A DNA stretch of 61,851 nt from a virus (taxonomy: Duplodnaviria; Caudoviricetes), in the IMG/VR virus record IMGVR_UViG_3300033182_001489, positions 1 to 61,851 of that record; one strand, 5' to 3'. Shown here in pieces: positions 21,201 to 59,088 of this stretch. The notes below the pieces were generated by a model. That model saw only the letters and a program-made list of their open reading frames with translations, was not told where the DNA came from and did not search any database. The position numbers and the translations under genes are program-made. Numbering within the stretch: the stretch's first letter is position 1; each line of letters starts with the position of its first letter.

Positions 21201-24200
21201 GAACCCAATCCCAATAGATGTCCTTCTCCGCCAGAATGAGTATCCCTGAAATATTCTCCAGCTATAATGCCTACAGCAGGTGCAGCAGCAATTGCGCCAG
21301 CGGTAGCCCCAGACGCCAAAGAAGCGCCTATTGTAGCTCCTCCAGTTTTTGCAATAGCGGCGGCTAATAAACCTTCTGCCGCCACACCCGTTCCCAAACC
21401 TGTCCATTCTGCACCAGTTGCGCCAAGAAAACCTTTTTCTTGTGAAAAACCTTTGCCATACATTCTCAATAATTCTCTTCCTACTGGATCTTGCGCTGCA
21501 TTAAAAACATTATATTCATTCGAATCAATACCGTTTGAGTTCATCCACTGCAGAGCTTCTTCTTGCGTATCAAATATTTTTGGCTCCCTAATGGATAAGA
21601 CATCTTGATTCTTCATTTCACCAGTTTGCGAATCAAACTCATCTTTTTTAAACGTTGTTGATTGTCCTCCAAGAGCATTTGGGTTATTGAATTTTAAAGT
21701 ATCTGCTGAGACCTCTAATGGATTAAAAGCTGCTCCAGATTCTGATAAAAACATTCTAGGATTATCTTTTTTTTGTATCGCAAATTTGCTTCTACCTGCA
21801 AGGCTTGCGGCATAATCTGCAACTTTCATACCTTTTTCGGTTTGAGCAAAATAAGCTGCGCCAACATTTAGACCTACAGTAGTGCCCATACCTATTCCAG
21901 TTCTTGCTGCAGAGCCTAGCTTTTGCGGCCCCATTTTTAAATTCACTGCGTCATCTAAAACTTGCTGAGCTCGCTTCGTTCTACTTAATGTGGCGTTATC
22001 AATTAAAGCCTTAGCCCTGGTTCTCGCTTCTTCAGTTGTAATTTTTGAAGAAACCTTTTCGGTACTTAATATTCTTTGTCGTTTTTGATCAACCATATCA
22101 TCAATTTGATCAACAGAAGCGTTAGGATTTGCAGCGATCTGCGAAGTTCTAAAATCGTCAAGATATTTGTCTACATCTGTAATTTGTTTGCCAGGAGCTT
22201 CTATAAAAGGTTTTTCGGGCTCAGGCAGAGTCTTCCGAGATCTTGTATGTAATATATCATCCTGGTGCTTATCAAGAATCGGAGTAAGATTAGATTTCGG
22301 CTTAATGTCTTCTGGTTCTACATATGTGCCATCAAGCACCGCGGAGACATTAGATTTTGGCTGAGTCTGAACAAGCTTTCCATCTACGTCCTCAGCATAA
22401 TTATCAGGATCATAAAATGTTGGCTTGTTAACATTTAATTTAATCTCTTCGGCAAGACCCGCAATCCTTTCTTCTTCAGTCGCGTCTGAAAATGAAACTG
22501 AGCTATCTCCTTTTTGAATTGACCGATCCCCCCAATTTAAATTATTCATCATTCTCTGATACGGTCTAGTATCTTTTGCATCAATTCTTTTTGCCCACAT
22601 TAGCTTCTCTCCCTTATTAAGTGGAGCTAGGGGGTCATCTACAGCAGCTATAGAAGCTTTATTTTTCCTTGTTATTTGGGTGCCAGGACCTTCAAAAGCA
22701 AAATAATCCTTAAGTCCAACTTTTGGCATGCCTCCTTTTTTTGTGAACTTATATTCATCTCCAAGTTTTTCTTTACCAGCGAGAGATTGTTCTAAATCTT
22801 TCTCAAATGCAGATTTTGGATTCCTTCTATAGCTATCTGCTAGACTTTCATTTCTTGTAGGAACTAAATTAGCAACTGCGCTTTTCGCGTTATTTACATC
22901 CTGCAATTTAGCATTCTCCATCTGTTCTTTATTTCTACGTTTTAATCTACTTACAAGCTTATCGCTTAAATTAACCACGCCATCTTTCATGGAAAGTAGT
23001 CCAAAACCAGACTTCATTGCTTTGGTAGTTCCTTTAAATAATCCAGTATCAACAACCCAATCGCTTAGAGCTCTTAATCTTTCAGTTAAACTTCTTGACT
23101 GCTTTGCTGGAGAGTCTTCTTCTGGACCATCTATTCCAGGAGGATAATCTGGAGTATCTTCGACAGCCTGCTTGAATACTGGGTCAGTTTCTTCCTTGAT
23201 ATCAGTAGCTTGCTTTACAGCACTCTGCCCATCTCCAGTCGCTTCTCCTTCAGCCACTTCAGTCACAGTACCTTGAGCTTCTCTTAGGGCATCACCAACA
23301 GCATTTGCATCCTCAACAGGATCTGGGGCAGGAGGCCTGCTTGTATTTGCTAAATCGCTACCCAACCGCTCAGTACCCTTAAGTCTTCGATCGGTGAAAC
23401 CTTTTTTCACAACTACATTTCCAGCTTTTGCAGTATCTGGGTCTATAATTCCGCCAGGAGTATTATTATGAACATCTAGCATGTTTGCCATTTGAGTTAA
23501 CTCTTCATCGGTCAATGTTCCTGATAAACCTTTTGCAAGTAAATGTTTAAATAAATCGTTATAAGCCCCTCTTTTAATGCCCATTGATTCCATAAGTAAA
23601 TCCATAGCCCTGGTTTGAGCATCAATATTATCCACGTTTTCTAGAGCGCTTGTAGGATCTAGAGCGTCGGCTAAAACATTTCCAGATGTCTTTAAGTCGC
23701 CACTACTACCGCTTTGCTGGACCTGATCCATAATGTTTCTAATTTTTTCAATAGTTTCATCGGGCGCTTGAATATTCGATAAATCCAACGATCCATCTTT
23801 GAACAATACAGCATTAATATCATTTGCATCTGGAAGAACATTACCCTTCTCAAGAGCGAGTTGTTGAGCCTGAGTATATAATTCATCCGCGGCTGTTATT
23901 TGCCCAATTCTCTTGGCAACATCTGCAGCATTATGTCCCGAACCCAAAAGATTTAGAATCTTTTTAGCTGCATCAGGCTTCTCCATTGGTATTAAACTAT
24001 TTTTAATTGCAAATCCTGAAAATATTTTACCTTCCTGTATTTCACTAAGTAATTGCTCTAATCCAAATTTTTTCTTCACAGGGCTCCCATCAGGATAAAT
24101 CGGATTTAAGTATTTTATAAAATCTCCAATTTTAAAAGACTTTCCATTATCAGCAAGACTATCCAAATAAGGGCCAACAATATTCATACCGACATGCTTT

Positions 24201-27200
24201 TCTACATCAACTAATTTGCTAATCAAATCTGGGCTCAATGTTTGCCCAGCAAGCTTTCCACTAAAACTCTTTTGCAACATTTCTCTCTCGAGATTAACCT
24301 GAAGCATTTGCTTCCAAGCTTCAAGCTGGTCTTCATTGTAGTACTTAAATGAATCGATAATACTCTTCAAGCTATTGTCATGCGCAACCAAAGTTTTCCA
24401 TTGGTCTGGATCCTTCATTACTTGATTAACCACATCTAAAGAGGAGAGGCCTTCCATTCCTCCAGCAGTAACAAGCGATTTAGCTAAATCTTTAAAATGC
24501 GTGCCTAGCAATTTTTGATTGGTCATTTTGAATTTGTAAAACTTATCAGTGTCATTTAGATCTTGATAATACTGATAATTTGCCTTTAAGTTATCAAACA
24601 GGACCTTGGCTCGCTCAGACTCATACTTAGAAGAATTTGGATTAGTCATGATATTTTCATACATAGCTAATTGCTCTTTAAGTCTTTGTTGTAGTAGTTT
24701 TGGATCCGATAAGTCTTCTAAACCCAAGTTTTTCTTTAAAAATTCTGGAGAATCTTCTCGCATATGTTGAAGCAAAAGCCTGCTAGCAAGGTCCTCGCCT
24801 TCATCTTGTAATAATCCAGGAGACTTTATAGAATCAATAAGAAGTTCTTTTGGTGGCAAGGGGTACGATTTTTTGGAATCATATTTAGAAATCATTGCTT
24901 GAGTTTCTTTCCACCGAATCTGCTCATCTAAAGTCATTCCCTCGAGCGCGCTACTCTTAAACTCTGGATTCTCAATCAGTTGATCTAACTTTTGTAAACC
25001 TTCTCCGCTTCTGGAAATTCTAGAAGATATATCTGGGGACTTAACGTCTGAATTCTCCAAGGCTAATACTTCGTCAGAAGTTTTAATATCTAATCGCTTT
25101 GCAAGGTCAGGATCTTCTTTCATTACGCCATACAACCTTCTATCAGCTTCGGACTTATCAATTTCTCCATCCTTAAAAGCTCTAAATATTTCTTTTAATT
25201 CCGCCTGAGATTTAATTTGTTTAGTGACAGTTAATTCATTTGCTGCAGAAGCATTTTTCGAATCCTCAAGGCTTAATGGACCAACTTCTCTAGCATAAGT
25301 TTCAATAATATTATCTGCGTCTATTTTATTTCCCCTCGCATCATATAAAACCATTTCATTAGGCTGCTTGATTTCAGTTTTGTTACCAAACTCATCTACC
25401 TCTAAAATAGGTTTCCCAGTGGCAGCATCAATCACTTCATAAGCTCCCAGTTTTTTAGGAGATGGTTTCATGAAAGCTTTTTGCCCTTTTTGCTTAAGGG
25501 AGTCTAGGTAACCTGAGATTTTTTGCCCTAAAGTCTTGGGTACAGTTTCCGCCCTAGCAGAACCAATTCTATCAAGAGCTGAAGCAGGAGTTACTCCAAT
25601 ATTAACTTTGGCAGGCTCCTCAAAATCAACAGGTTCGACTGATTTTGGCTGACTTACCTGTGCTTGTTGTTTTGCAAGTTTTGCCATTTTTTGCAGTGGA
25701 TGTTCATCTGCTTGCAAGCCCTTTCCTTGAGCAACGTCAGCAAGAGCTCGAGCATTATATTGCCTATTCATTTCCATCTGTACCTGAGCTTCAGTATCCG
25801 TAAATCCAGCAAAATTTGCAGCCCTAGCTTTAATTGTATCCATTAAACCCATTTCTCTGTAAACTGGGTCGTTATAAACAATTCGCTCAGTACCATCTAT
25901 AATTGATCGAGTTCTATTAAGACCCCTATCGATTTCTTCTTGCTGTATTTTGCGAACTCTCTCTGCCTCAATTTGTTTCTGAATTTTTTCCTGCTCTGCT
26001 TTGTATTTCTTTTCTGCAGCTTCCTTCTCTTTCCTAAATTGTTTTTCAGCCTTCTCCTTGGCTTTTTGAGATTTTTGTTCTTCCTTTGCTTTTTGAGCTC
26101 GCTCTCTTGCCTCAGCAATTTCCCGATCTCTTTCAGCTTGCAATCTTTCAAGCTCAGCCTGCTCGGTTTCCCGCCTTTTATTTCGAAGATAAGCGGCGGC
26201 CTGCTGTTTCCTTCTTTGTCTTTCTATAAAATCTCTTGCTTTTTCAGTAGTCCTTTCGAATAAACTTTTTGCTGGAACACTATCATCTTTTGCAGAAGAT
26301 AAAAATTCATCATTTGAAAAAGCATCTACAGCTTTCTGCTGCTCAGCAACATCATCACTATCAAACATTCTTGCAACATTTATTCTCTCCCTGATTCCAG
26401 TACCATACTCCCTAGCTCTTTCACCCATATTTCCAATCAACTCCTTAGCTCCAGAAACTGAAGCCCAGCTTGGTACCCAATTTTCCAAACCTCGCAAATT
26501 CAACATATCTGAAATTTTAAATTTAGGCATTTTTATTTTGAAGCCCCTGCCTTTTTTCTTTTGTTTTGCATCAAACGCGGCATCAGACTCGGCTTTAGCT
26601 TTTGCCTGCGCTTCAAGCTGGAGGTCTTTTTCGGTCATAATTTCTTTTGGTCCGAAAGTATCAAGATGCATCAGTCCCTTATTGCCCTGATTATAATCAA
26701 GCGTGCGGATTTTTTCTGTAGCTACTAAACCTTCTTCGGTCATTTCGGCAGGCAAAAGTGCATCGAAACCAAATTGTACTCGACTACCTAATCCCCCCTG
26801 CAATTGAGCCCTTGCAGCAGCGCCAGTATCCAGAAGCCTAGGTGCAACATCTTCCATTATGCGTTCACCACCATCACCAACAACATCACTAAAATGAAGA
26901 CCATAAATTCTGAATCTATCAGTCAGAATTTTATTCATCTCTAAGGCAGCAGTATCGTCTCTTGATAAAAATGCCCTTAACTTATCTCCCTTCTTGGTTC
27001 CTACTTCATTAAGCCTGTCGATAATTTGTTGTTTATATGAATTAATTTTTTCAACCCTTCTATTGGTCTGCCCACCAGAACCCTCTTTTAAAGGATTTTT
27101 TTCAATTTCATCCATTGCAAACGTTAGGTCGTCCACTATTTTTCTAAAACTTGAAACCGCAGAATCTCCTTTAGCAAAATTTGGTACAAAAGCTGCCGCG

Positions 27201-30200
27201 CGACCAACAGAATCCATTCCAAAATTTAAAGAAGATTTTTTTGCTATAGTCTCAATACCCTTTGTGCCAAAAGCTTTATCTTTTGGAGTCACTCCGTGAA
27301 TCGATCTAATTTTTGAAATATAACTTTGAGGCGATACAGCACCTTCATCTAATTTATTTGTTACAACAGCTCCTTGATACTTTACTCCATTAAAACTATC
27401 GTTTTGTTTTGGAATAGTTAATTGAATTTCATTCAAAGGATTAGCAATCCCTTTACCTTCTAAAGCCTTTACCTCTCTAAATATTGCAGAGGTTGCTCCA
27501 GGATAAAATCCAGCAACTCTTAGAGCTGCGCCGCCAGTAAAAGTCTTACCTTCGTATTGAGAAAAACCTCTGCTTTGCAGATAGCCGTCGCCAGCAGTTG
27601 CCTGCAATATGCCTCCAACTGATTGCCTTGCAGATTGAATAGTACTGATTTGTGTAGAAGGATTTAGAAGCTGATTCCTCAAACGGTCTTCGGAAGCAAA
27701 ATTAGGAACAAATCCGCCAGCAGCAGTAGACCCTGCGCGACTACCATTTGTGTTTATTGCAACAGATCCAGCATTAACATTTGTAGAGCCTGAAGCGCTC
27801 ACCGTTAAACCTTTGGTTACAATACTTTGAGCTTTTTCTTTATTGTCTTTTGTTTTGGCTTCGCTTTTCTTCCGCTCTTCTTTTTTGACCTCATCTTTGC
27901 CTTTAAGCGCGCTTAATTGATCTAGTATTGCTGGAAGAGATTCAAATTTAGACAAACTAATTTTCATGTCTGAAATATTTTGATCAATAGAAATCAAGTG
28001 TTTTAATTCTACAGGTTCTTTACTTAATTCATCTGCAATCGCATTTAAAGAATCAAATCCTAAAGTGTCAAGATTTATACCCAAATCTTCTAGATCAATT
28101 CCCAATTCTTTAGCAGTACTCTCAATTGTATCCCTTTGAAGTAGTTCGGGATCCATAGAGGTCTTTAGCATTTCGGCTTCTTGCCTCTGCAAACCTTTAA
28201 TCATATAAGCCATCATATCCTTTTGGCCCTTAGAGTAGTCTTCTTGCACTAGAGCATTCTGCATAACTGCGATTAAGTCCTGCAAGTTGGGACCTCCTTG
28301 ACCATTTTGAACACTAGCGAGAAAGCTCTTATCGACCCCATCCTTGTCCTCCATTTTTACCCCCATGCCCATCAAAATTCTTTGCACATTACCTATTGCC
28401 TGAGCGGTGCCAGCCTCTTGCCGCATTTGCCTGGAAATCTGATCTTCACCAAAAAGAGGTTGCAAAATATTTAACATATCAGTAGTAGTTCTTGCTTGAA
28501 TATCCTTATCTAGGGAAGTTCGTGGCTCAAACTTACTTGCAAACCCAAAGTCTTGAAATATCTTCCCCTCTCTATCCATGTTCAATTGACTATTTCTTAA
28601 TGCAATCCTAGAGGCCATAGTTTCCTGGCGTTGAGCAATTTTATTCTGCATCTTTAATAACTCTATCTGATTACTTGACTTTTGATTTAATTGTACTACG
28701 CTATCCAGCAACTCCTGCTCTTCTTTTGTCCTATTCTCGGGAGCGTTATTAGCAATTGAATCAATAATTTGATCTGCAAAAAATCTAGGGTCAGAATCAT
28801 CAAACTTACTACCAGAGTTATACATATTTGACAAAATCTCTCCCATCGCTCCAGAGAAAACAGAACCATCCTTACCCTCAACCTCATCAATATTCATACT
28901 CTTAGCAAACTCTCTAACAAATTCAGTCACCTCAAATTCGGTTGCCGCAGCAGTTTGGGAGTTGATTCGAGCAATATCAAAATTCATTTTTTCATTATCT
29001 GCCTCTGCAGCGGTAATAACATTCAAGCCTTTAAGTATGCTTAATTCTGATTCAAGTTGTTTTTCTGCTATATTAAATGCTCGATCAATATTTTTATTGA
29101 GCTCTGCAACGCTTCTTGAGGTTGCTCTTGCAAGATTGACAATCGCTGATTTTAAATTGCCTAGAGATTTTGTAGTTTCCCCAACGGCCTCTGCGGCCTC
29201 TAGAGATTGTTTCCTTAACCTTGCCTGCTCCAATATTCCTTGCGTATAATCAACAACTACGTCATCAGGAACATTTTCTATAATACTTTGAAAACCTTTT
29301 CGAGATTCTTCATCTAAAGTTGCTGCATATTTTCTTAATGTATCTTTAATATCTCTAGGGGAATCCTTTAAATAATCAATTTCATTTGTAATTGTATTTA
29401 CTAAGTTATCAACTTGATCTTCTGCCAAATCTAAAGAACGAACAGTATCATTGCCAGCAATTTTAGCTTTTCTCTTGCCCTCTTCACCCATTTCTCCCTT
29501 AAAATCTTCTCCAAAAGGGTTCGGAATTCTAGAAGGTCCAAAAGGAATACTACCAACACTACCTCTATCTTCTTCTAACTTTGTAAGATCAAGCTGCACC
29601 TTATCTAGAGAGTTTAATTTTTGAGCTCTTTCTGAGAATCTCTCAAGCGAGTCAGACATTTTTTCAATATCTCCATTTGCCGCAACTAAATCATCTCTTA
29701 ATTCTTGAGCCGCGGAAGAGCCTTGGGGAAAATCTTCTATTTGCTTTTGCAGCAGTTCTATTGATTTTTGCACAGCGCTAACATTGCCGTTTTCCAGTGC
29801 ATTGTTTAATCTTGTTTGAGCTTGGATAACTCCAGAAGCACTATCAATAACCTTTTGATTATAATTAATGTTTTCTTCTAAAATTTTACCATGAGCTTGC
29901 AAGCTTTTTGAGTAATGATCTAAAGTACCATTTGTTGCACCAACTGCAGCAGCAAGAGCGATCCACCTTTTCTTATTAGTAATCATTGAGGTAATCGCAG
30001 CGATCTGCGTAGCGTCTTGCAGTCCATCTGCAAGGTAACCACTAGCTTCTCCAGTTGACCCCTCGAAGCCGCCTAAAAGCATAGGAGCAAACATAATGCT
30101 ATTTTGAAACATTCCTCCTCCACTGCTTGGAACATCAATGCCCTTACCAGCCTTCGAACCCCCTCTTCCAAAAACTTTACTTATACCCCTACCAATTGCG

Positions 30201-33200
30201 CCGCCGACAAAATTGGGAACATAGCCATTAGCCATTAACCCGTGAAATTCTGGATTTTTGCCCTGAGCAACTGCTCTATTTATTCCTTGATCTATACCAG
30301 CGGGTTCATCATAAGTATTAATTACGCCCAAACCTGCTGGATTATGCTCATTAATTAAGCGATTGCTTTGGGCAACTCTAATTTTTGAAAATGGTATTCC
30401 CGCCTGATGTTCTCTTTGTATAGCCTTACCTAATGCGTCAGTAGTTTTTTTAGATGCTGCTTTTTTATTTATTTCATAATTTGGAACAAAGCCTCCGTAC
30501 ATATTCTCATCGAAATACTGCTTTTCTTGCGCGCCCGAACGAACTCCAGGATAAACAGGAATGCTTTGATGCTCCTGAGTGCTTATATTTTTTTCCTGAT
30601 CTTTGCCTGCTTTTTTTGTAATTTTTCCCCTAATAGAATTAGCGGCAGCAGCTCCAGCAAATCTTTGCAAAGTTGCATCCTTATTCTTTTTTGCTAAATC
30701 TTTATCATATCTATTAAAATCATCTTTATCCTTTGCCACTTGGCCAGACAGCATTCCTTGGTAATCTAATTCTTTTAAAATTTTATCAGCCATGCTAATT
30801 TTAATATCACCAGATTCAGCATTAGCTTTAAAATCCCCCACAAATCCATGGGCAGGAGGCCATGCAAAAAACTTTCTTAATTGCTCAGAAGGTCCTCGTA
30901 CATCAAAATCCCCACCGCCTGCGTTCACAGGAACATTGCCAAAAGCTGTATTTGCTGCAGCCTCAAAAGCATTTCCAGCCATTGCAGTAATAGAGCCCTT
31001 ATTGAAACTTTTTTCAACTTGTCGATTAATTACAGAGGGTGAAGACATGCGAATCTCTGATTCTCCAAAAGCTTTAATAAAATTTTCGGCATGTCCGAAT
31101 ACCACAGTTTTAACATCTCGCTCTACAGAATCAGCAATTTTTGCAATATCATCTACAGTTCCAGGTAAACCAGGATTTATACCTTTTGTATTCCAACCAA
31201 CCTTAAATTGGCTTTGATATTTTTTAGCATACGGTCCAGAACCCCTTACTGTTGCATCGGTTTTGCTGCCACTATTTCTCTGAGGAAATAAAAGTGAATA
31301 AGCAAAAGTCGTAAAAGGAGTCAGGTCAATAATATTATCTTTATCTTTTTGATAAGGTTTATCTTTCTGCCTACCAGCCTTCCCGCCCGCTCCAGCAAAA
31401 TTAGGAATAAATCCATCATTAAAAATTTGCATAACCTCATGTTCGCGAGAGCTGATTTGTTGTGTTTTGTTTTGATTCCATCCAATATCAGACTGAGGAA
31501 CAATTGACTGCATAGATTTGTCGTAAAAATCATACTCTTTTCTGCCATACTTTATTCTATTAAACTGCATAAGGGCAGGATCATTCCTTCTTCCACTGAC
31601 ATTTAAAAACAATCCTCCGACTTGCTCAGCCCATTTTTGTATTTGGCCTGAAGCCATGGCTTTTTTAAATTTTTCTACCTCAGGATATATACCTTTTTTT
31701 GGATTAGCTCCTCGATTTAATAACTTAAGAATCTTCTTTTTATTAAATACGTTTTTCTCTGGAACCTGAGTAGAAAGTATGTTATCTTTTGCAGGTTTAT
31801 TTAATCCTCCTCCAGCAAATTCTTTAGCTATTGTTTGTGAGGTACTGAATGATGTAGCTCCAGAAGGCGCAACGTTGTCTAGCTCTCCAATGTCTCTGCG
31901 TCCAGAAAGCGGTCCACTAACATGAGACTTTACAAAATTTTGAATAATATTAATTACATCTTGAGGAGTTTTAGCTCCTTTAAAGCTTGGCATGTTTCTG
32001 CCAATATTAGGCCTATCTATAGTTGGATTCTTTTGTCCCCTATACAGAGTTAAATTTGCATAATTTGGTACAATACCTTCGCTTATATTTTCAAGCTGTC
32101 GAACCTCAAATGGATTTATATCATATCCATAACCCTTTGACAAATCAGGGAAATCTGCCTTGAGTTTTTCTTGTACGTATTTACTTAAAGATCTAAATTC
32201 CCTTGAATTAAAAAACTGCCTAAAGTCTTCTTTTTGTTGTTTTGTTGTTGCTCTAAACAAACCATCTGCCCTAGATGCAGACTTCAATCGTGTATTTATT
32301 ACCCCACCCCTAGCTCCCATAGACATAAGGTTAAACTCTGAAAGAGCTCTGCTAATTTCGGCAAATTCTTCGTTGGAATAATTTTTTATTTTTGATTTTC
32401 TTAATGTATTAGGAGAATACTTTCTAAAAATTGCGAAATTAGGAAGTGCTCCATATGCCATCTGAGGAGGAGAAGGTTCCGCCATTGGAGTGGTTCCACT
32501 CGCAAATGAATTAATCATACTTGCAAATTCTCTAGCCCTTTCCTTTCCAACTGTCGTATCCCTTGGGGGTAGAACCATGCCCCCATCAGGAGCGGATGGC
32601 AAATTAAAAGCTCTCTGAACATCTTTGCCAGTTTCAAAAAACTTTTCTTTATTGTTTACAACAACTTTTCTTTTTTGCCCTTTAATTTCTAAATTTTTAA
32701 CAGAAGTATCTTCGTAACCCACGGGCTCGTTATATAAACTTGAAGCATTGGAAGCTTCAGCCATTCTTTCATTTAAAAAATTGTAATTAGGAACATATCC
32801 TCCATATAAAATCTTAACGCTTTGAGGGGATTGCTTATGAAGCTTTCGTAATGATTTTAACTCTTCTGCATTATAACCTTTTTTAATTAACAAATCTAAA
32901 TCTGATTTATATTCAATAGGGTTTTTAATATAGCTTTCAAGAAACATTTTATCATAAATTGTTTTTGATTTTATTGTTTTTATTTTTGATTTTTGTTTCT
33001 TAAGTATGTTTTGCGCGGCAGCCCTCTCACCTCGAGTTCCGCCTCTTTTTGCCAACTCTTGTATAGCTCGGACGTTTACAAAATTAGGAATAAATCCTTC
33101 TGAAAAACCCATGGCGCCCTGAGACCTTTTCCACTCATTCACCAAATCATTCATTTTATCTTGCTTGATAAACAACTTACTTTCAGCATCCGTTATATTA

Positions 33201-36200
33201 ATACTCATTCTTTCATCCCCAGGCATAGGTCTTGGACTTGTTATTCCAGTTCCATAAAAACCTCTTATTGTACTCTTGCTCGCGTTACCAGATTTTATTT
33301 TGTCGTAATCATCCCAATAGCTTTTCTTGTAAGAACCAGCGTCTTTATTAACTACATCTCTTAACTTATTTAGTTGGTACGGCGGCAACTTTTTATTTGC
33401 CTCAATCCATTTAATGAAGGCTTGCATTTCTGAAGATTTTCCAGAAAATTTCGTATACCAATCCTTGCCACCTTCAGGTTTATACCTAAAATCTCTCTTT
33501 GCATTAAGACCTCGCTGAAATTTTCCATAGTTAGGGATCATCCCTGCGGCCATTTTGTCAATCATATTAAAAATTTTGCCATCAGATTTTGCAGAAGTTA
33601 CTCGAGTTGTAAGATCGGTAATTAAAAATCTATTTCCCAATTCGTTTGAACCTAAGATTTGTCGAAATTCTTTTCTGTCCATTTGGTTTACGTGATTTCT
33701 TAAATCACTCAAATCCTTAAATTTATATTGCTGCATTGATGACTCATTTATTAACCTACCCGAAGTTATCATATCTTCTTGCATTCTGTATTTTAATTGA
33801 GGGTAAGCATAAACTAAATCTTGAAAATTTGTTTGAGAACCCTGCATAAAAGCTCTTTGTTGCTTTATAGTGTCTGAAGTATACTCGCCGCCTTGTTTCA
33901 TAAACTTCGATTGTCTGGCTGCTGAAAATATTTTAAACGCATCACCTTTTGAAAAAGATTGCATCCATTCGATATTCCTAGTATTCGGACCTGTCTTAGC
34001 GTAAGTCATGGACGAAAAACCTTCAGAATCTTCAAGCCTTCTAGTTTTTAAGCCATTCATTATTCCATTATTAACGTCTCTTATTTTAAAATTCGGAATA
34101 AAACCATCGGCAAAACCTCTTTTTCTTCCTGGAGTTGCTTTTGTTTTTTGATCTGATAGTTTCTTATCTATAAATTTTTGCCCACCTCGATCCTTAATTA
34201 ATTTTGAAGCAAAACTTCCTATATTCTTATTATTTGTAGAATTTTTTGCATCGAATTTTTTACCGACAGAACCTTCCAGCCCAAACACATCCCCAGCTAA
34301 TCTTTGACTAATTGACGGAAAGTCCCATCTATCAGTTCCACCTTTTTGTTTTTGTACGGCGCCTTGTATGTAATTTAAAGTAGCCTCAAATAGTCTTCCT
34401 GAAACTTGGGGAGCGGCAGATTTATCAAGATAATCGCTAAGCGGGCCTGCTGGAGATATTTTCTTTTTTCCTCCAAGAACTCTTTGTCCAATATTTTTAA
34501 GTGCTACTCGAGTTTCCTGATCAACAATTTCATCAAAAGATCCAGATTTACCTTCAATTTTACCAACTGCAACTCCTGACAATGAAATTTTCTTACCCTT
34601 CATGCCCTTGGGAATACCCGAAGGAAAAACATACCTTGCAGGTACATCAAATTTTTCAGAACTTGAAGAGCTTCCTTTTTGAGGCAAAAGAACTCCAGCT
34701 CCGCCAGCCCGAAGGTTAATAGAGCCTTTTGCATAATTTGGAAGATAACCCATTCCAGCAACCCCCTCTATTCCTGTTTGCGCAGCAGAGCCAACTCTTT
34801 CAGCGCCGATTGGAGCGCCAAATCGACTCACCATATCTCTATTCAAAATTGCAGAAGCGCCAGTTCCCATGAAATTTTTAACCATTAATTCGTCAGTATT
34901 CGCAACGACATTTTGCTTTTTAGTTTTTGAAGATTGAAAATTCTCAATTAATACTGGTTCTGCGCTTTTTCGGGCACCACCTACTCCACGCTTAATACTC
35001 TTTTCCTCTTTATTAAAAGCGGGAATGTATCCTTTTGCAAGACCAAGGTCAGCTTTCCCCTTCGCACTTCTTGCACCTCTTCCCGCGGGCACAAAAGCGC
35101 CCATAGGACTAACGGCAATATTCGCTAACGCAGACGACGCAGCGATTTTTTTTAAGAGCGCGTCTTGCGCGATTCGTTCCGTCGTTTGCCTTTTCATGAC
35201 AGCGAGTATTTCTTTTTCTTTTTGCGTTTGCGACATGGAGCCGCTTAAAATTTTCTTACGAACGCCTTCTTCGCTCATTAAAATTTGCAGAATTGCTGCT
35301 TGTAGGCCTTCCTGCCTTTTTGTTTCGCTATTGATTGCAAAAATAGATTTTAATGCTCCTACGCCTTGCTTAGCTATAAATGCAAATAATTTAATAAATG
35401 CTCCACCTATTAATATCATTCCTGGCCCACTAATGAATGAACCAATACCTTTTAGTAATGTCTTTCCGATATTAAATCCTTCGCTCTCTCCAAGTAAATT
35501 ATTAATTCCATCAGTAAAGCCTTTTAAAACCCCTAGTATTTTTTCAATTCCAGGCCCAAGAGTTAGCTCGCCTATTGAAGAAGCCATCTCTTTAATTGAA
35601 AGCCCCGTCTGAACAAGCAGGGCAGACATTGTTTTATTTAATTCTTCATTCCTTCGAATAGCTTCATCAGTTGTATTATTAGCCGTACTTAGAGCCTGGC
35701 CATATATACTATATTCATTATTTAAATCTTTAATTAAAGCTTTTAAATTATTAACTTGAAAAACTCCAGCGATCATTTCATCAGTACTCGCTCTTTGGGC
35801 ATCACTTAATTTATCATATACTGCCGCATAGTCTTGCAAAACTGCCATGGAGGATCGAAATGCTCCTGATACGTCCGTAGTGGCAACACCCACTCCTTCT
35901 AAAGCTTCCCTCACACTAGATCGCTGAAGCCTCGTAAATATACTTTTAAATGAGTTTCCTATAACTGCTCCGCCACGAGCCGTTTGCTGTTGAACGCTAG
36001 TTACTGCCGCAAGCAATTCATTAAAACTGACTTTTGCGCCTTGCGCAGTTGCGCCTGCTCGCGCCAAACCGTCAGCAAGATCCTTTGATGATACAGCGAA
36101 GGCAGCGTCAACATTTGCAAGACGATTAACAATATCGGTGGATGTCAATGCGGCATCACTAAAACCATTGATTGCTGCGGTCAGCGAGGCGACAGAATCT

Positions 36201-36706
36201 ACAGCATCAAGTCCTGATAATCTAGTTAGAATCATTGCATCCTCAATTCTTCTTAATGTTTCTTCTGCAGACAAACCTTGTCTAGCAAATTCTGTAGCGG
36301 CTGCAGAAATATCCTTGAAAGAAGTTGCTGTATTCTGTGCTACGTCAAACAGGCTTGATCCAAAATCTTGCAGTTGAGAAGTCGTCATCCCCATAATTAC
36401 GTTAATATCTTTTAAAGCCTTTTCAACTTCTATAGCCGATTGAGCCATATGCTTTAGTGCGTCTGAAACGCCATTAATAACACCTACAGCTGCGCCAAAT
36501 GCAAATACACGAGCAACAGCAGCGTCCATAGATTTTTCAAACTCACCCATTTGCCCAGTAATTCTACCCAACGGCTGAGCAAGACCTTTTTCATTTAACG
36601 AAATAGATATTGGTTTAATTTTCTTTTCGCCTGCGCGAGCTTGATTAGCGATATCCTGATCAAGACCGACTGCTTTAACTCTGACTTTGATATTATCTTG
36701 AGGCAT
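12206..36706 (-). CDS. Giant tape measure protein (TP901-family N-terminal domain) with embedded effector-like domains
   Basis: 8166-aa uninterrupted ORF. N-terminal EFARQGLSAEETL...LANVDAAFAVSSKDLADGL...GAVIGNSFKSIFTRL is the PhageMin_Tail pattern. Lies between tail tube/chaperone genes and tail-tip genes. Confidence 0.9.
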   Translation of the reverse strand: MPQDNIKVRVKAVGLDQDIANQARAGEKKIKPISISLNEKGLAQPLGRITGQMGEFEKSMDAAVARVFAFGAAVGVINGVSDALKHMAQSAIEVEKALKDINVIMGMTTSQLQDFGSSLFDVAQNTATSFKDISAAATEFARQGLSAEETLRRIEDAMILTRLSGLDAVDSVASLTAAINGFSDAALTSTDIVNRLANVDAAFAVSSKDLADGLARAGATAQGAKVSFNELLAAVTSVQQQTARGGAVIGNSFKSIFTRLQRSSVREALEGVGVATTDVSGAFRSSMAVLQDYAAVYDKLSDAQRASTDEMIAGVFQVNNLKALIKDLNNEYSIYGQALSTANNTTDEAIRRNEELNKTMSALLVQTGLSIKEMASSIGELTLGPGIEKILGVLKGFTDGINNLLGESEGFNIGKTLLKGIGSFISGPGMILIGGAFIKLFAFIAKQGVGALKSIFAINSETKRQEGLQAAILQILMSEEGVRKKILSGSMSQTQKEKEILAVMKRQTTERIAQDALLKKIAASSALANIAVSPMGAFVPAGRGARSAKGKADLGLAKGYIPAFNKEEKSIKRGVGGARKSAEPVLIENFQSSKTKKQNVVANTDELMVKNFMGTGASAILNRDMVSRFGAPIGAERVGSAAQTGIEGVAGMGYLPNYAKGSINLRAGGAGVLLPQKGSSSSSEKFDVPARYVFPSGIPKGMKGKKISLSGVAVGKIEGKSGSFDEIVDQETRVALKNIGQRVLGGKKKISPAGPLSDYLDKSAAPQVSGRLFEATLNYIQGAVQKQKGGTDRWDFPSISQRLAGDVFGLEGSVGKKFDAKNSTNNKNIGSFASKLIKDRGGQKFIDKKLSDQKTKATPGRKRGFADGFIPNFKIRDVNNGIMNGLKTRRLEDSEGFSSMTYAKTGPNTRNIEWMQSFSKGDAFKIFSAARQSKFMKQGGEYTSDTIKQQRAFMQGSQTNFQDLVYAYPQLKYRMQEDMITSGRLINESSMQQYKFKDLSDLRNHVNQMDRKEFRQILGSNELGNRFLITDLTTRVTSAKSDGKIFNMIDKMAAGMIPNYGKFQRGLNAKRDFRYKPEGGKDWYTKFSGKSSEMQAFIKWIEANKKLPPYQLNKLRDVVNKDAGSYKKSYWDDYDKIKSGNASKSTIRGFYGTGITSPRPMPGDERMSINITDAESKLFIKQDKMNDLVNEWKRSQGAMGFSEGFIPNFVNVRAIQELAKRGGTRGERAAAQNILKKQKSKIKTIKSKTIYDKMFLESYIKNPIEYKSDLDLLIKKGYNAEELKSLRKLHKQSPQSVKILYGGYVPNYNFLNERMAEASNASSLYNEPVGYEDTSVKNLEIKGQKRKVVVNNKEKFFETGKDVQRAFNLPSAPDGGMVLPPRDTTVGKERAREFASMINSFASGTTPMAEPSPPQMAYGALPNFAIFRKYSPNTLRKSKIKNYSNEEFAEISRALSEFNLMSMGARGGVINTRLKSASRADGLFRATTKQQKEDFRQFFNSREFRSLSKYVQEKLKADFPDLSKGYGYDINPFEVRQLENISEGIVPNYANLTLYRGQKNPTIDRPNIGRNMPSFKGAKTPQDVINIIQNFVKSHVSGPLSGRRDIGELDNVAPSGATSFSTSQTIAKEFAGGGLNKPAKDNILSTQVPEKNVFNKKKILKLLNRGANPKKGIYPEVEKFKKAMASGQIQKWAEQVGGLFLNVSGRRNDPALMQFNRIKYGRKEYDFYDKSMQSIVPQSDIGWNQNKTQQISSREHEVMQIFNDGFIPNFAGAGGKAGRQKDKPYQKDKDNIIDLTPFTTFAYSLLFPQRNSGSKTDATVRGSGPYAKKYQSQFKVGWNTKGINPGLPGTVDDIAKIADSVERDVKTVVFGHAENFIKAFGESEIRMSSPSVINRQVEKSFNKGSITAMAGNAFEAAANTAFGNVPVNAGGGDFDVRGPSEQLRKFFAWPPAHGFVGDFKANAESGDIKISMADKILKELDYQGMLSGQVAKDKDDFNRYDKDLAKKNKDATLQRFAGAAAANSIRGKITKKAGKDQEKNISTQEHQSIPVYPGVRSGAQEKQYFDENMYGGFVPNYEINKKAASKKTTDALGKAIQREHQAGIPFSKIRVAQSNRLINEHNPAGLGVINTYDEPAGIDQGINRAVAQGKNPEFHGLMANGYVPNFVGGAIGRGISKVFGRGGSKAGKGIDVPSSGGGMFQNSIMFAPMLLGGFEGSTGEASGYLADGLQDATQIAAITSMITNKKRWIALAAAVGATNGTLDHYSKSLQAHGKILEENINYNQKVIDSASGVIQAQTRLNNALENGNVSAVQKSIELLQKQIEDFPQGSSAAQELRDDLVAANGDIEKMSDSLERFSERAQKLNSLDKVQLDLTKLEEDRGSVGSIPFGPSRIPNPFGEDFKGEMGEEGKRKAKIAGNDTVRSLDLAEDQVDNLVNTITNEIDYLKDSPRDIKDTLRKYAATLDEESRKGFQSIIENVPDDVVVDYTQGILEQARLRKQSLEAAEAVGETTKSLGNLKSAIVNLARATSRSVAELNKNIDRAFNIAEKQLESELSILKGLNVITAAEADNEKMNFDIARINSQTAAATEFEVTEFVREFAKSMNIDEVEGKDGSVFSGAMGEILSNMYNSGSKFDDSDPRFFADQIIDSIANNAPENRTKEEQELLDSVVQLNQKSSNQIELLKMQNKIAQRQETMASRIALRNSQLNMDREGKIFQDFGFASKFEPRTSLDKDIQARTTTDMLNILQPLFGEDQISRQMRQEAGTAQAIGNVQRILMGMGVKMEDKDGVDKSFLASVQNGQGGPNLQDLIAVMQNALVQEDYSKGQKDMMAYMIKGLQRQEAEMLKTSMDPELLQRDTIESTAKELGIDLEDLGINLDTLGFDSLNAIADELSKEPVELKHLISIDQNISDMKISLSKFESLPAILDQLSALKGKDEVKKEERKKSEAKTKDNKEKAQSIVTKGLTVSASGSTNVNAGSVAINTNGSRAGSTAAGGFVPNFASEDRLRNQLLNPSTQISTIQSARQSVGGILQATAGDGYLQSRGFSQYEGKTFTGGAALRVAGFYPGATSAIFREVKALEGKGIANPLNEIQLTIPKQNDSFNGVKYQGAVVTNKLDEGAVSPQSYISKIRSIHGVTPKDKAFGTKGIETIAKKSSLNFGMDSVGRAAAFVPNFAKGDSAVSSFRKIVDDLTFAMDEIEKNPLKEGSGGQTNRRVEKINSYKQQIIDRLNEVGTKKGDKLRAFLSRDDTAALEMNKILTDRFRIYGLHFSDVVGDGGERIMEDVAPRLLDTGAAARAQLQGGLGSRVQFGFDALLPAEMTEEGLVATEKIRTLDYNQGNKGLMHLDTFGPKEIMTEKDLQLEAQAKAKAESDAAFDAKQKKKGRGFKIKMPKFKISDMLNLRGLENWVPSWASVSGAKELIGNMGERAREYGTGIRERINVARMFDSDDVAEQQKAVDAFSNDEFLSSAKDDSVPAKSLFERTTEKARDFIERQRRKQQAAAYLRNKRRETEQAELERLQAERDREIAEARERAQKAKEEQKSQKAKEKAEKQFRKEKEAAEKKYKAEQEKIQKQIEAERVRKIQQEEIDRGLNRTRSIIDGTERIVYNDPVYREMGLMDTIKARAANFAGFTDTEAQVQMEMNRQYNARALADVAQGKGLQADEHPLQKMAKLAKQQAQVSQPKSVEPVDFEEPAKVNIGVTPASALDRIGSARAETVPKTLGQKISGYLDSLKQKGQKAFMKPSPKKLGAYEVIDAATGKPILEVDEFGNKTEIKQPNEMVLYDARGNKIDADNIIETYAREVGPLSLEDSKNASAANELTVTKQIKSQAELKEIFRAFKDGEIDKSEADRRLYGVMKEDPDLAKRLDIKTSDEVLALENSDVKSPDISSRISRSGEGLQKLDQLIENPEFKSSALEGMTLDEQIRWKETQAMISKYDSKKSYPLPPKELLIDSIKSPGLLQDEGEDLASRLLLQHMREDSPEFLKKNLGLEDLSDPKLLQQRLKEQLAMYENIMTNPNSSKYESERAKVLFDNLKANYQYYQDLNDTDKFYKFKMTNQKLLGTHFKDLAKSLVTAGGMEGLSSLDVVNQVMKDPDQWKTLVAHDNSLKSIIDSFKYYNEDQLEAWKQMLQVNLEREMLQKSFSGKLAGQTLSPDLISKLVDVEKHVGMNIVGPYLDSLADNGKSFKIGDFIKYLNPIYPDGSPVKKKFGLEQLLSEIQEGKIFSGFAIKNSLIPMEKPDAAKKILNLLGSGHNAADVAKRIGQITAADELYTQAQQLALEKGNVLPDANDINAVLFKDGSLDLSNIQAPDETIEKIRNIMDQVQQSGSSGDLKTSGNVLADALDPTSALENVDNIDAQTRAMDLLMESMGIKRGAYNDLFKHLLAKGLSGTLTDEELTQMANMLDVHNNTPGGIIDPDTAKAGNVVVKKGFTDRRLKGTERLGSDLANTSRPPAPDPVEDANAVGDALREAQGTVTEVAEGEATGDGQSAVKQATDIKEETDPVFKQAVEDTPDYPPGIDGPEEDSPAKQSRSLTERLRALSDWVVDTGLFKGTTKAMKSGFGLLSMKDGVVNLSDKLVSRLKRRNKEQMENAKLQDVNNAKSAVANLVPTRNESLADSYRRNPKSAFEKDLEQSLAGKEKLGDEYKFTKKGGMPKVGLKDYFAFEGPGTQITRKNKASIAAVDDPLAPLNKGEKLMWAKRIDAKDTRPYQRMMNNLNWGDRSIQKGDSSVSFSDATEEERIAGLAEEIKLNVNKPTFYDPDNYAEDVDGKLVQTQPKSNVSAVLDGTYVEPEDIKPKSNLTPILDKHQDDILHTRSRKTLPEPEKPFIEAPGKQITDVDKYLDDFRTSQIAANPNASVDQIDDMVDQKRQRILSTEKVSSKITTEEARTRAKALIDNATLSRTKRAQQVLDDAVNLKMGPQKLGSAARTGIGMGTTVGLNVGAAYFAQTEKGMKVADYAASLAGRSKFAIQKKDNPRMFLSESGAAFNPLEVSADTLKFNNPNALGGQSTTFKKDEFDSQTGEMKNQDVLSIREPKIFDTQEEALQWMNSNGIDSNEYNVFNAAQDPVGRELLRMYGKGFSQEKGFLGATGAEWTGLGTGVAAEGLLAAAIAKTGGATIGASLASGATAGAIAAAPAVGIIAGEYFRDTHSGGEGHLLGLGSYAAGGAIAGALIGGPVGALVGAGIGATAYGARTVLGDYVDFDSSGNVSWAKSPEELKEQQKQILELIKTRADELRDIMDLSYMAQKQKESRIGADLISGEPLQKGFSYDTIDEKGNKKRINVAGKDLFDASIEEENKRRMEEQMKHILGLLDIAEDMDAKILENKKLRQLGEVNDNWFSDDDPVFKQNYTFDEANRMISDVVSLYDASGNTHFDMATLRKMSKEGYTQKQIMDTFSDPNFEISRIDPKTGQPKTIKPNTKDIKDLRAKKAKDYLKGLENVNLVNKRRGHTASSTDFVATTGHSVDDVVRLGQLKPDQIEYESKVASLIKDRRGKLFSKEHKILQSKKEWKDAASRGTLDYGKVGYPLEMAKILGIPLKADGKPRRQAAIEADVDKAYEDYFASGKLPVKRPLFDGDFVSDARDTMKMIRYTDGVNSLMWGKQKDGWTVEHDPDTKGVNMFHPEFGAVSLPGLGNYDSEASLEKLIEKYEADIMRSGYEDNKNMDPTLQGFSDTDRYRSGYDQKTSRSELGKSKYKNYDEISKHIPEDRRRMLGALSVLMQRKESIDNQELSRESVEKIRTQDKKSKKFERDAKRYGDFSKFIAERNTKVKSANQEISSAGFDLNKAISDFSLNKIVQGVNKEHLGHDFLNNKKLGSLNMSEAEINAYVDRMYDFVQQQDVGPLMKEFDNTQAEIGVIDKKISQGVTPEERKNLNLKKQSLQQKLEKISVKRADIKKGLSAPARIKKALAVRAKAESEYKAKVDGLYSSMSNDLSSGQKSVFNDVGRRFGSDTIEGKEIAIQRVFENELLEESRKQQMPDLYPGETPDRNKLNLQRGIMFEDDQWSPELKDKHQKWLDLKSKYLTIPNVPKEMLLPEQHSEILKAKEDFMKQYSFELKNRSSVKAGTEEKWEDFSKSRFTKEQKEQGAETSVAEKIAKARDQWKDVAGMPEMLQYTAQMELAGTDVGANLAMGSIPVNEIDKAHGRLTNLLSRSGKTMEWWRDQPLKSRNAKLNQIQRQSSRKEMLDKFARENLSAEGARVEGTSEIFKTYQDYKIGPITVPGRSAEDHAMDFLKKNLRDKFNFYDINEDNRLSAREIGDMGADFSLDNHLGKLLGSDKEGYSIARRKKVGADAGTFVPEMFSQLLQTQDLNDDGFLDRSEIFKGVGSKDFREREDFYAPKIQENVNKMLKENMVHRVSPYTASLESGMLDYFSGGGLGAISSWSNVLNIPASKIKGLEPGKQKEISEAQSVAAALIQSVPYHQTVIKRGSALEERTKAQYKDLFETREMFRLSGEDELTGRELEAKRDMLKQKEGGVDSAEYKSTMKHLNALYAKQEKFKQIDGMIKDSIRTGLFNEGGPFSLTDFLQMHLSSPEAQYSGLSDPSWAPDNIGTRWQTYDKDYFNGIRTAATSLDSLEAAKIDTAMFGGEEAEVGSQDLNFELDEARLQQQHAERNKFIKENMNERSRQAFERELRGDGPHGDFNLLDGESSPEKPTLTNIYDPLKFIQKYTQDYNLKKGQLWRDVDEKKKVYDDLRLNAGIGNNPQTGVEARSVAFNQYKQAVLAELKHRKILNPNATTAEVVNRKNYHELSNSDWSLGSTYKDFFENYNESDIKVQMPAGDIPVKNAQEAGEQLFKNRGDEIIPVLKKRGLMTQDGKFVSKVGENVITPQKIYELIATTTPGSKYVYKNDSKFQRMKQIWASKYGGEFTPGAMNLFKNEGSLLTLTSSTPAGDLNKSTFSGDLSNSFVVQRTASKEGEEPEVLGQFDTLSPIDKLMHAIAESAQVGFKGSASTTDFRSIYKGMSLHEREMFKSKYADDIENKVPPGIIKQLNTFISEIDKEELYGAAQGRVPNYIKLKMKHNKRLTPQEKSVLAQAKRDEYEARKIVQAKRRASGISRGAAALIDRADYNECLARFIDASPGAGAHRSLIGFDKRMKDLDNLNLEYGPRKFEGRMIKNEGDKNKLREGFARARATYFNQFKAAVQRDHNSKNRIIFDHVDPRGFRENPDLCNIKTNMIGRPTIETLSAEEKAAAARLGITLQDNVMKVDEQGNPILSQEQLTNERRLEGTGPFDITRKTQIMEGAGAGGAIMTETTLNEIQTAANQAFSQFNQNREKIEKEQKQQDIDKYDTDGDGKLSDDELRIKKLKEFLEKNKRSASASGFKPTQKSAGMSAKSGAKGIMNEMFAAHRAGYKSPLRPNEVSMAKLRTSTGRVEKRTVNSREKIFSRGGMDFVAPPRDSGATARKYASSVKSEFGFDPYDDSTAAEGFIPRAANAASTALQTNLITGPLIMALQKVFNQQKSSSQQSQSSSAFEDIQYRYDPKKDVMQPSNDRALNKMVRNFVDTKASRTEDSERVNFDDITKPFIDSFQVWKEISKNVKQSFNEGQKQFVDGFKQIFDLQQEANSPEEGFENLLKKVDLKQANPMSPAVDILKQLLDCCRKGSAEEKRLQQADQRSSSPEVKRDIVEQSKSSMTPGQKLVQDVANARFERQKEMGGIDLNSFARTNLARSVTDLDVQKIDDQGDPDIIAAKKRFLEDDNFRQANKQIDWDAWAKDKFEHFQDRGIQVNRGNVDELLGKAPEGTFMDQAIQKQLQNFEFDPAKIPSADPLKQEAEVIKDGITAINQPDATAPREEALALRGNCCDAIEDFLRSQTQTPDLSSQQQFVPPEGHTIPDSIPDMDQLRYKVDEDDLEPQVRRFNNSFESPPVDFLTRKPEQKLYRYESDTFRNQSAAMDSLNPSSTSMGVDTTFLDAIPSALAPLMEGFTSFIGKIGDLSDILQTPIGPMMMEQGLNEQGALFNNTENVFETNNDNSSAEIQTQEVNQPRLQIPEGLEEMLTLKAPEEMPAVEFNVDNFNTAISRLETSMASLSEIRLSPPTSEELRLAMPDDFSLQLQAPEDMPTVNIDVEKLDAAVKALNEAVQNATSVTHKFDLNLDTSGIVQVVADNEQLRKGVETPLADFKKAMESSLETTLGYRISAAMNDVINLLTGGAR
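30209..35032 (-). repeat. Cluster of 11 G-[FYIMA]-[IVL]-P-[NA]-[FY] peptide motifs inside the TMP
   Basis: Motifs at about 35015, 34730, 34088, 33527, 33080, 32783, 32435, 32060, 31397, 30476 and 30209. Further copies at 27698, 27176 and 15635, and a degenerate one at 14375. Confidence 0.9.
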
Positions 36707-53216: not shown

Positions 53217-54178
53217 GCTTTTTGTTGAATCCTTTCGTCTATAAAATATTGAATATCGCAAGACCATAATTTTTTACCAATTTTAAGTAGTCTTGGCACT
53301 AAGAATTCAGAAGCTTTTCTGCTGCCTGAAAATATAAATTGACAATTATCGGGATACAATCTAAGCAGTTTTCTAACGTTGTGCCAAATGTAAGACAGGT
53401 TTGACTTGTGGGGAGAAAAAGAATTATTGTTTTTAATTTTTTCTATACTCGAGTCAACTAGAATATACAAAAAGCTATCAAATTGTTTAGCCCTTTCAAT
53501 CTCCCTAACGAACCTCTCAAACCCCACAGACATAGTTGATTTAAAATCTGCCTCGCTTTTTCGATCAATGAAGGTATACGAGTAATCTTTTCCACCAATT
53601 GTATAATCCCCAAAATCTAATTTCAAAACTTTAGATTTAGCAAACACCAAAGGTTGCTGTTCTCGAGTGTCTATTAAAATTTCTAAATTTTCATAAGAAC
53701 GATCTTTTTCAAAAAAATTTTCGACGATATTTTTGTCATAAACCAATCGTATGTTTTCTAAATTAAAATTTGACTTTAGCTGGTTTAGCGTTTCTGTATA
53801 ACTTCCAAAGCATTTTTTATAAAAAGACAGCGGGGGCATTTGGCACAGCTCAAGCTCTATGTGTCCAGGCATTAGATATGATTGCTTCGAAGACATTCTT
53901 TCGTAAATTTTTCTGAGTAAATATTGCTTCAGTTTAGGATCTTCGGCGTTTTGCAGCTTAATCCACTCGAGCATTTGTTTTCGATTACTAAAATCCTTAG
54001 TAAAATAATCTTGCTTATTTTTAAATGGCAAAGGCTCCTTCGTAAGCATGTTAAATCTTGGAAAATGCTTGGTATAATATTCCGCAACAGTTAAACCATG
54101 TTTTTTAAAATGTGCATGAAGAGATCTTTCAGATTTAAATATCTGACCGCATTCTTCGCATTTAAATTCAGATTGCAT
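53213..54178 (-). CDS. C2H2 zinc finger plus ERCC4/XPF-type nuclease domain protein
   Basis: CEECGQIFKSERSLHAHFKKH; ILIDTREQ...LDFGDY...IDRKSEADF matches the ERCC4 GDY...ERK motif. Confidence 0.8.
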   Translation of the reverse strand: MQSEFKCEECGQIFKSERSLHAHFKKHGLTVAEYYTKHFPRFNMLTKEPLPFKNKQDYFTKDFSNRKQMLEWIKLQNAEDPKLKQYLLRKIYERMSSKQSYLMPGHIELELCQMPPLSFYKKCFGSYTETLNQLKSNFNLENIRLVYDKNIVENFFEKDRSYENLEILIDTREQQPLVFAKSKVLKLDFGDYTIGGKDYSYTFIDRKSEADFKSTMSVGFERFVREIERAKQFDSFLYILVDSSIEKIKNNNSFSPHKSNLSYIWHNVRKLLRLYPDNCQFIFSGSRKASEFLVPRLLKIGKKLWSCDIQYFIDERIQQKA

Positions 54179-57956: not shown

Positions 57957-58139
57957 ATGAAAAACAATACAAAACAAGAACAAAGAATTGTACTTCAATG
58001 TGGTCGAGGACGCTGCTGCCCAGAAATTATTAAAAAAGAAAACAACTTTATTATTAAAGACGATTACAATGGAGAAGTAAAATTAAATCAAGAACAAATA
58101 AAACTTCTACAAAAAGCTATATCAGATCTCACGGATTAA
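57957..58139 (+). CDS. Small hypothetical protein (CGRGRCCP motif)
   Basis: 60-aa ORF with a normal AT-rich upstream region. Confidence 0.6.
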   Translation: MKNNTKQEQRIVLQCGRGRCCPEIIKKENNFIIKDDYNGEVKLNQEQIKLLQKAISDLTD

Positions 58140-58934: not shown

Positions 58935-59071
58935 TTCCGTAATATTAATAAAAAAAGCAATAAAAATCAAGCATAAAAAGTAATTTGAGAAAAAAAACCA
59001 CAGTATGTGCCGCGATTGTGACAATATGTCTCTAAAATAATATCTAAATAGCGTTTTTACAGTATAAAAAG

Positions 59072-59088
59072 TTGGCATGAAGCTTGCA
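59072..59088 (+). promoter_or_regulatory. Sigma54-type -24/-12 promoter for Hsp20
   Basis: TTGGCATGAAGCTTGCA versus consensus YTGGCACGNNNNTTGCW; 11 nt before the ATG. Confidence 0.7.

Follow-up and report, generated by a model that had tools for sequence, protein, structure and literature searches.

A candidate R-S-E-type ADP-ribosyltransferase cassette within the giant modular tape measure protein of a tailed virus

Injected and virion-borne ADP-ribosyltransferases (ARTs), tape measure proteins (TMPs) with enzymatic parts, and mosaic polyvalent proteins that include ARTs are all known already. The tape measure itself is usually treated as a ruler and a channel former. In the IMG/VR virus record IMGVR_UViG_3300033182_001489, a stretch of 61,851 bases with a completeness estimate of 43% (the whole of which is called the window below), a TMP of 8,166 residues contains a cassette of about 215 residues that has the motifs of an R-S-E-type ART and lies between two short separator motifs. 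What is new is an ART-like family in a new carrier, the tape measure; in a search of open-access full text, with supplements outside its scope, no report of a TMP-ART fusion was recognised by title or abstract start. The reading put forward here, to which a probability of about 0.6 is given, is that the cassette is an active R-S-E-type ART, divergent and new, that is delivered as cargo of a modular tape measure.

How does this locus compare with phage ARTs and with the bacterial toxins that share the motifs? The ART Alt of phage T4 is injected with the DNA, according to passages of PMC5512222. Alt, ModA and ModB of T4 resemble the cassette in being phage-encoded and in having LYRG, S-F-[ST]...A..FA, and ExE blocks in the same order. 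Alt, however, is a separate protein carried in the head, whereas the cassette is an internal module of the TMP. The distance from the serine motif to ExE is about 65 residues longer in the cassette than in enzymes of the ModA/ModB type. PF26816, which precomputed annotation assigns to ModB homologues, is absent from the Pfam results for the cassette, and no significant homology to these T4 enzymes was found. In cholera-, heat-labile-, and pertussis-like toxins the motifs follow the order R, His, S-T-S, ExE, the histidine being conserved between the arginine and S-T-S. The same order (R, H51, S-T-S, ExE) is found in the cassette, and EcPltA, CARDS toxin, and pertussis S1 are among the top rows of a Foldseek search with its first predicted structure, at template modelling (TM) scores of 0.16-0.23. 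Unlike the toxins, the cassette is part of a phage structural protein, with no context of secretion or of a B subunit, and it has no Pfam match.

Other systems resemble the carrier rather than the enzyme, or combine the two differently. The MuF-VIP2 fusions of actinobacteriophages (Microbacterium phages) have an R-S-E-type ART on a virion protein and are predicted to be in the particle, according to part of the text of PMC7302621. Those fusions have a head protein as carrier and a C-terminal ART that Pfam recognises; in the window the carrier is the TMP, and the ART-like domain is internal and unrecognised. The TMP of phages P23-45 and P74-26 (5,002 residues) is, like that of the window, a giant tape measure with an enzymatic part: its N-terminal part is a virion RNA polymerase whose presumed place of action is the entry pore, as described in sections of PMC10770324. 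It differs in that the enzyme is another one, the fusion is single rather than a motif-bounded array, the phage is one of a thermophile, and no sequence relation was detected. The transglycosylase annotations on SPbeta-type YomI point to a further tape measure with an enzymatic part.

A mosaic organisation with a shuffled order of cassettes is seen in the window TMP; the polyvalent proteins are described in parts of PMC5512222 as very large mosaics of shuffled effector domains in which ARTs are the commonest protein-modifying domain. The ARTs of polyvalent proteins are of the H-Y-D type (ART-PolyVal), and those same parts state that R-S-E ARTs are not found in polyvalent proteins; the word 'tape' has no occurrence in the main text of PMC5512222. 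The ART-like motif of the window is R-S-E, not H-Y-D, and a Pfam scan of the 8,166-residue TMP found none of the polyvalent signature domains (ART-PolyVal, or companions such as MuF and MPTase). In the Sle1-type effectors of actinobacterial contractile injection systems, a TMP-like scaffold with exchangeable functional modules is ejected, according to the abstract of PMC13277306. These belong to a bacterial nanomachine and have a single C-terminal functional domain, and that abstract mentions neither an ART nor a separator motif.

The cassette and its motifs are arranged as follows; residue numbers without a prefix are those of the cassette.

31415..32059, minus strand: ART-like cassette, about 215 residues (TMP residues 1550-1764; 1545-1770 with both separators)
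32060..32077, minus strand: separator upstream of the cassette, GIVPNY, from a motif scan
31397..31414, minus strand: separator downstream of the cassette, GFIPNF, from a motif scan
32036-32047, minus strand: LYRG, from the translation; the longer LTLYRG occupies 32036-32053
32036..32041, minus strand: R12-G13 (TMP R1556 and G1557), invariant, within model strand 7-14
31913-31936, minus strand: FVKSHVSG, from the translation
31922..31924, minus strand: H51 (TMP H1595), invariant, at the end of model helix 37-52
31817-31858, minus strand: ATSFSTSQTIAKEF, from the translation
31838..31852, minus strand: S75-F-S77-T78-S79 (TMP 1619-1623), on model strand 74-77 followed by helix 80-86
31433-31447, minus strand: REHEV, from the translation
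31436..31444, minus strand: E211-H-E213 (TMP E1755 and E1757), invariant; E213 opens the last strand, 213-218

The proposed active site, predicted from these motifs, would be R / S-x-S-T / E-x-E, with an invariant histidine between R and S. A first-pass annotation of this DNA had already described an ART domain here, exactly between two motifs and inside the TMP. Its peptides are all found on the minus-strand translation of 31415-32059, and GIVPNY and GFIPNF do flank that interval. LTLYRG is present as it said, although the range that it gave for this peptide, 32036-32047, spans only LYRG.

Could these motifs have come together by chance? A loose [YF]R..ST[ST]..ExE pattern with generous spacing was present in 241 of 1000 shuffles of the window TMP, and the bare R...STS...ExE arrangement therefore means little alone. 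A stricter motif pattern was present in none of 1000 shuffles; it was written after the sequence had been inspected, so this is no fair test. The motif signal is instead taken as real because of its conservation across relatives. When 1.84 billion representative proteins were searched exhaustively with phmmer (E <= 0.001), 16 of them matched. Three of these were left out: P0015, a 52-residue fragment; P0017, near-identical to part of P0018; and P0016, a repeat protein that matches query residues 21-89 only and was judged spurious. The remaining 13 relatives are all in very long proteins or fragments of such proteins. IMG/VR gave 11 further cassette loci, and all 11 are open in frame over their full length with no stop. 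A metagenome profile scan with a narrower alignment found at least five loci, including one new divergent member, and a search among longer proteins added one further divergent member. The cassette relatives are all in giant tape-measure-like proteins of uncultured viruses; among 14 relatives examined, all four with an intact N-terminus (3,383-4,959 residues) have the TMP core at the start. Two relatives bear ocean-survey names.

Conservation was counted over 25 aligned cassettes with 29-94% identity to that of the window, the denominators being the rows that cover a position. R12 and G13 are invariant (22/22), as are T36, P37, F47, and H51 (23/23), S71, G72, A73, S75, T78, A83, and F86 (23/23), and E211 and E213 (24/24); position 77 is S or T. 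In the most divergent member, P0027, which belongs to a 26-row alignment, YRT replaces YRG, and R, H, S-x-S-T-S, and ExE are kept. Another arrangement is seen in residues 1-204 of P0014, where the ExE strand runs without a separator into a second copy of the N-terminal half of the cassette. This half-copy has the helix with His and then the S-x-S-T-S block (profile match 1.3e-11), which looks like a partial internal duplication.

The support for an ART comes from four weak lines that agree with each other: the Foldseek lists, the neighbours in the ESM atlas, the profile alignment with ModA/ModB, and the placement of the motifs in predicted structures. AlphaFold2 gave confident alpha/beta models of the cassette from 14 sequences (model 1: predicted local distance difference test, pLDDT, 81.1; predicted TM score, pTM, 0.81) and from 26 sequences (model 2: pLDDT 83.9, pTM 0.83). 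In both models R12 is in the first strand (7-14), a short strand that leads into a helix bears the serines, and a strand begins at E213. In R-S-E ARTs the R, S, and E residues are placed at such strand positions.

The Foldseek lists, in which every row is below significance, are rich in ARTs. For model 1 against the PDB, eight of the 10 best rows are ARTs (ranks 2 and 4-10), and these include EcPltA, TccC3, CARDS toxin, TreTu, the mono-ART of SdeA, a PltC-toxin chain, and TreX. Among the 39 rows listed, 15 are named ARTs, or 18 with TreTu, TreX, and the PltC-toxin chain, which we take to be ARTs; ParT, pertussis S1, PARP, and tankyrase are also on this list. For model 2, ranks 1-14 are all ARTs (ParT, PARP1/2, TreTu), as are 29-31 of the 43 listed rows, although PARP entries are over-represented in the PDB and inflate the row counts of both searches. 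Across both PDB lists there are at least 10 distinct ART proteins. Named ARTs occupy eight of the 50 rows in BFVD: a PolyVal ART at rank 4, two entries named 'ADP ribosyltransferase', ModA twice, ModB, a Marseillevirus exoenzyme-type ART, and a PARP-domain protein. Several MuF-type rows are also on the BFVD list. In the ESM atlas, the nearest Pfam-bearing clusters are ART-PolyVal (twice, with 22-24% of members), Arr-ms, and PARP, with a family or clan common to nine of the 10 best named matches; the scores, 0.84-0.85, count as leads only by the calibration of the tool.

A family alignment of T4 ModA/ModB was built as a template for hhalign, and this gave the best profile similarity that was found (score 29.6, P 0.0014). 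The S-F-S...A..FA block of both families is aligned, such that the serine motif of the cassette is paired with S-F-[ST]. Of 150 templates with shuffled columns, one reached the real score; with the template reversed, the score was 18.9 as against 29.6. In a second local alignment, LYRG is paired with the LYRG of ModA/ModB (P 0.095). An environmental ORF (open reading frame) of the PF01375 type has YRG, His, and a GA..ST...IAK.FA block co-linear with the cassette, in an alignment that is non-significant (P 0.1). Taken with the models, these results suggest that the cassette quite probably has an ART fold.

What carries the cassette, and how might it reach a host? The ORF that contains it is read as a TMP because of matches to TMP families and the usual siphovirus gene order.

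12206..36706, minus strand: giant TMP ORF, 8,166 residues, one open frame that carries the cassette array
35783..36346, minus strand: TMP core, PF10145 PhageMin_Tail, TMP residues ~122-308, from a Pfam match
27698..34750, minus strand: cassette array with 11 strict G-h-[IVL]-P-N-[FY] separators, all in the TMP frame

From base composition, about 619 stops would be predicted over the TMP frame, and none is observed. PF10145 matches the N-terminus with an E-value of 1.1e-25 and 91.2 bits (curated cut-off 33.2), and separately with 2.9e-29. Over the first ~500 residues there are matches to ten tape-measure PHROG families, with E-values down to 1.2e-48. The gene is downstream of the large terminase (PF03237) and of a weak major-tail match, and five large ORFs without annotation come after it. 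The statement in the first-pass annotation that the cassette is inside the TMP thus stands. The nearest TMP core among isolated phages, that of SPbeta-type YomI, is distant (26-27% identity), and the terminase of the window has 24-29% identity to its nearest counterparts in isolated phages. The TMP has hydrophobic segments in the N-terminal core (residues 420-458 and 521-539) and a glycine-rich hydrophobic cluster far downstream (residues 5130-5197). At 8,166 residues it is far longer than the 5,002-residue TMP of P23-45, which the authors of that work termed giant. Beyond the N-terminal core, Pfam and PDB sequence searches of the whole TMP gave nothing but weak EF-hand matches; these EF-hand-like motifs are in the C-terminal half, at window positions 17711-17977 and 14765-14815 on the minus strand (EF-hand_7: 3.6e-6, 27.7 bits, slightly below the 30-bit cut-off; EF-hand_6: 0.049).

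The proposed mechanism is as follows. A few TMP copies in the tail tube would exit before the DNA does when the phage infects; the cassette would get into the cytoplasm and then fold, and, with NAD+ of the host as substrate, it would modify a host macromolecule to the benefit of the phage. The first-pass annotation had suggested host RNA polymerase, defence proteins, or DNA as possible targets. Exit of the cassette from the tail together with the TMP, and action in the cytoplasm, where there is NAD+ to draw on, are inferred by analogy with the P23-45 TMP. By our own packing estimate, three chains of 8,166 residues amount to ~2.7 MDa and would occupy ~260-500 nm of a 4-nm lumen when tightly packed; therefore, the cassettes must travel unfolded or extended.

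Is the cassette an ART at all? Several results weigh against it, and the same results would fit a conserved domain of another fold or function, such as a structural or spacer module of the TMP or an unrelated enzyme, whose R/STS/ExE likeness is coincidental. The loose motif is frequent in shuffled sequence, as given above, and G or P occupies many of the invariant positions, which points to a constraint on structure. No ART family was found in Pfam, PHROGs, or NCBIfam, either for the window cassette or for any of the 14 alignment members scanned singly at E <= 10. PDB searches by sequence (phmmer) and by profile (hmmsearch) gave no ART; the sole match of the profile search was 3fgg_A, of unknown function, at E 0.34. 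A tblastn search of the cassette against 50,697 phage records gave no match. The hhalign probability for ModA/ModB is 17.9%. Comparison ART ORFs were sought in 400 genomes per family, of which one matched PF01375 and two matched PF03496. The resulting profiles are poor because too few genomes matched, and the alignments with one Enterotoxin_a (PF01375)-type ORF (P 0.1) and three ADPrib_exo_Tox (PF03496)-type ORFs (P 0.27) are not significant. The three Foldseek searches (two of the PDB and one of BFVD) gave no match at E <= 0.001, the best E-values being 1.1 for model 1 and 0.73 for model 2 in the PDB and 0.29 in BFVD. Despite the confident models, TM scores do not exceed 0.33, and the root-mean-square deviation is mostly 6-16 Å; the model of a typical ART would usually score better in Foldseek. 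To these may be added the inflation of the PDB counts by PARP entries, the lead-level atlas scores, and two features of the topology. The ExE strand is the last element of the cassette before the separator, where the core of known ARTs continues with one or more strands, and the spacing from the serine motif to ExE, ~135 residues and largely helical, is long. The structure comparison that the first-pass annotation had proposed as a check thus returned no significant match, with ARTs prominent in the match lists, and the ART identity that it had claimed has the four agreeing lines in its favour but no significant match. A domain of another fold nevertheless seems unlikely: ARTs dominate the PDB lists of two models and are present in BFVD, the ESM atlas independently indicates the same clan, the invariant polar set R, H, S, T, E, E is at strand ends as in ARTs, and hhalign pairs the serine block with that of ModA/ModB.

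If the cassette does have an ART fold, its activity need not be the modification of proteins. It might act as a glycohydrolase and so deplete NAD+ or the defence signals derived from NAD, or it might modify nucleic acids or small molecules. The neighbours in fold and feature searches include ParT, Arr-ms, and ModB, whose substrates are a metabolic enzyme, rifampin, and RNA as well as protein, respectively, and the acceptor is not fixed by sequence alone. On the other hand, an ExE pair with an upstream Arg, as in the cassette, is typical of arginine- or protein-directed R-S-E transferases, and nothing favours hydrolysis only, which makes such an activity distinctly unlikely. A further alternative accepts the ART-like domain but not its delivery: it would act in the producing cell before tail assembly, or cleavage at the separators would keep it out of the virion. 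By our own estimate a folded 25-kDa domain would not fit the lumen of the tail tube, and the separators could be processing sites. However, the cassette is always in frame within the TMP, as the open frames of all 11 related loci illustrate, it has no stand-alone form among the sequences searched, and the sections of PMC10770324 cited above report that the RNA polymerase fused to the P23-45 TMP is an enzyme of the virion. Non-delivery is thus considered highly improbable, and an active R-S-E-type ART travelling as tape measure cargo is preferred.

The cassette is one module among shuffled cassettes that are inserted just after the N-terminal core of the giant TMP; in the window TMP, the array follows the hydrophobic segments of that core. 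The strict separator G-h-[IVL]-P-N-[FY] was not found outside the TMP frame in the six frames of the window, and looser variants are present at TMP residues 560, 3173, and 7440. In 15 giant proteins 113 separators were counted, with G at -1 in 105, N before the aromatic residue in 105, and F as this aromatic in 90. The separator may be where the protein is processed, or where a chaperone or the tail tube docks. Between separators, the cassettes group into families whose order varies among proteins. For example, the ART cassette is directly before a cassette of 77-89 residues in some proteins, and apart from or after it in others. This short cassette (119 residues in one fragment) is at window positions 30209-30475 on the minus strand, TMP residues 2078-2166, and had no family match. 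Ten of the 15 giant proteins have it, and in most cases no other cassette stands between it and a long hydrophobic and coiled region. Two other cassettes of the window, 34088-34732 (TMP residues 659-873) and 30476-31396 (TMP residues 1771-2077), both on the minus strand, have a common block, …G..FEA..N…GG.D…, and may be distant paralogues (BLASTP E 0.066).

Is the ART-like domain found in any other setting? With the ART profile, the window TMP gives a single match. A second copy at TMP residues 874-1060, suggested by single-linkage clustering, was therefore rejected as a chaining artefact. No stand-alone cassette was found: two matches of near its length among 4,360 candidates are fragments of long frames. 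The search for differently fused forms covered proteins of 495-2000 residues and gave four matches, and two cassette patterns run against bacterial and archaeal genome contigs gave 123 stretches, none of which is a relative. From these searches the ART-like domain appears to exist only as tape measure cargo, because no stand-alone form was found.

Taken further, the TMP might be a polyprotein-like delivery string, in which an exchangeable array of at least 10 effector cassettes sits behind the core and each is bracketed by the same G-h-[IV]-P-N-[FY] linker, at which the string would be processed or would dock to a chaperone or to the tube. What the phage injects via its tail would then be a mixture of enzymes that can be customised, among them the founder of a new R-S-E ART family. 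This proposal is put forward tentatively, as a speculative extension. If the ART-like cassette is active, the idea of an injected, host-modifying ART would extend from head-packaged proteins (T4 Alt and the MuF fusions) to the tape measure, and an ART family that current libraries miss would be added. The main interest is in an ART-like module within the modular cargo array of an exceptionally large TMP. The shuffled cassettes between identical short linkers, in TMPs of 3,400-8,200 residues, hint that modular carriage of cargo by siphoviruses may be general, and the cassette architecture gives a concrete handle on a large unannotated block of sequence.

Two other ORFs of the window gave domain matches. 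A 321-residue ORF that adjoins the terminase (53213-54178, minus strand) has a C2H2-type zinc finger at its residues 5-27, with a match of 1.5e-4 that is below the cut-off. A 318-residue ORF at 58122-59078 on the minus strand matches glycosyltransferase family 29 (sialyltransferase; 1.2e-8, 35.2 bits, cut-off 23), which seems an unusual family for a phage.

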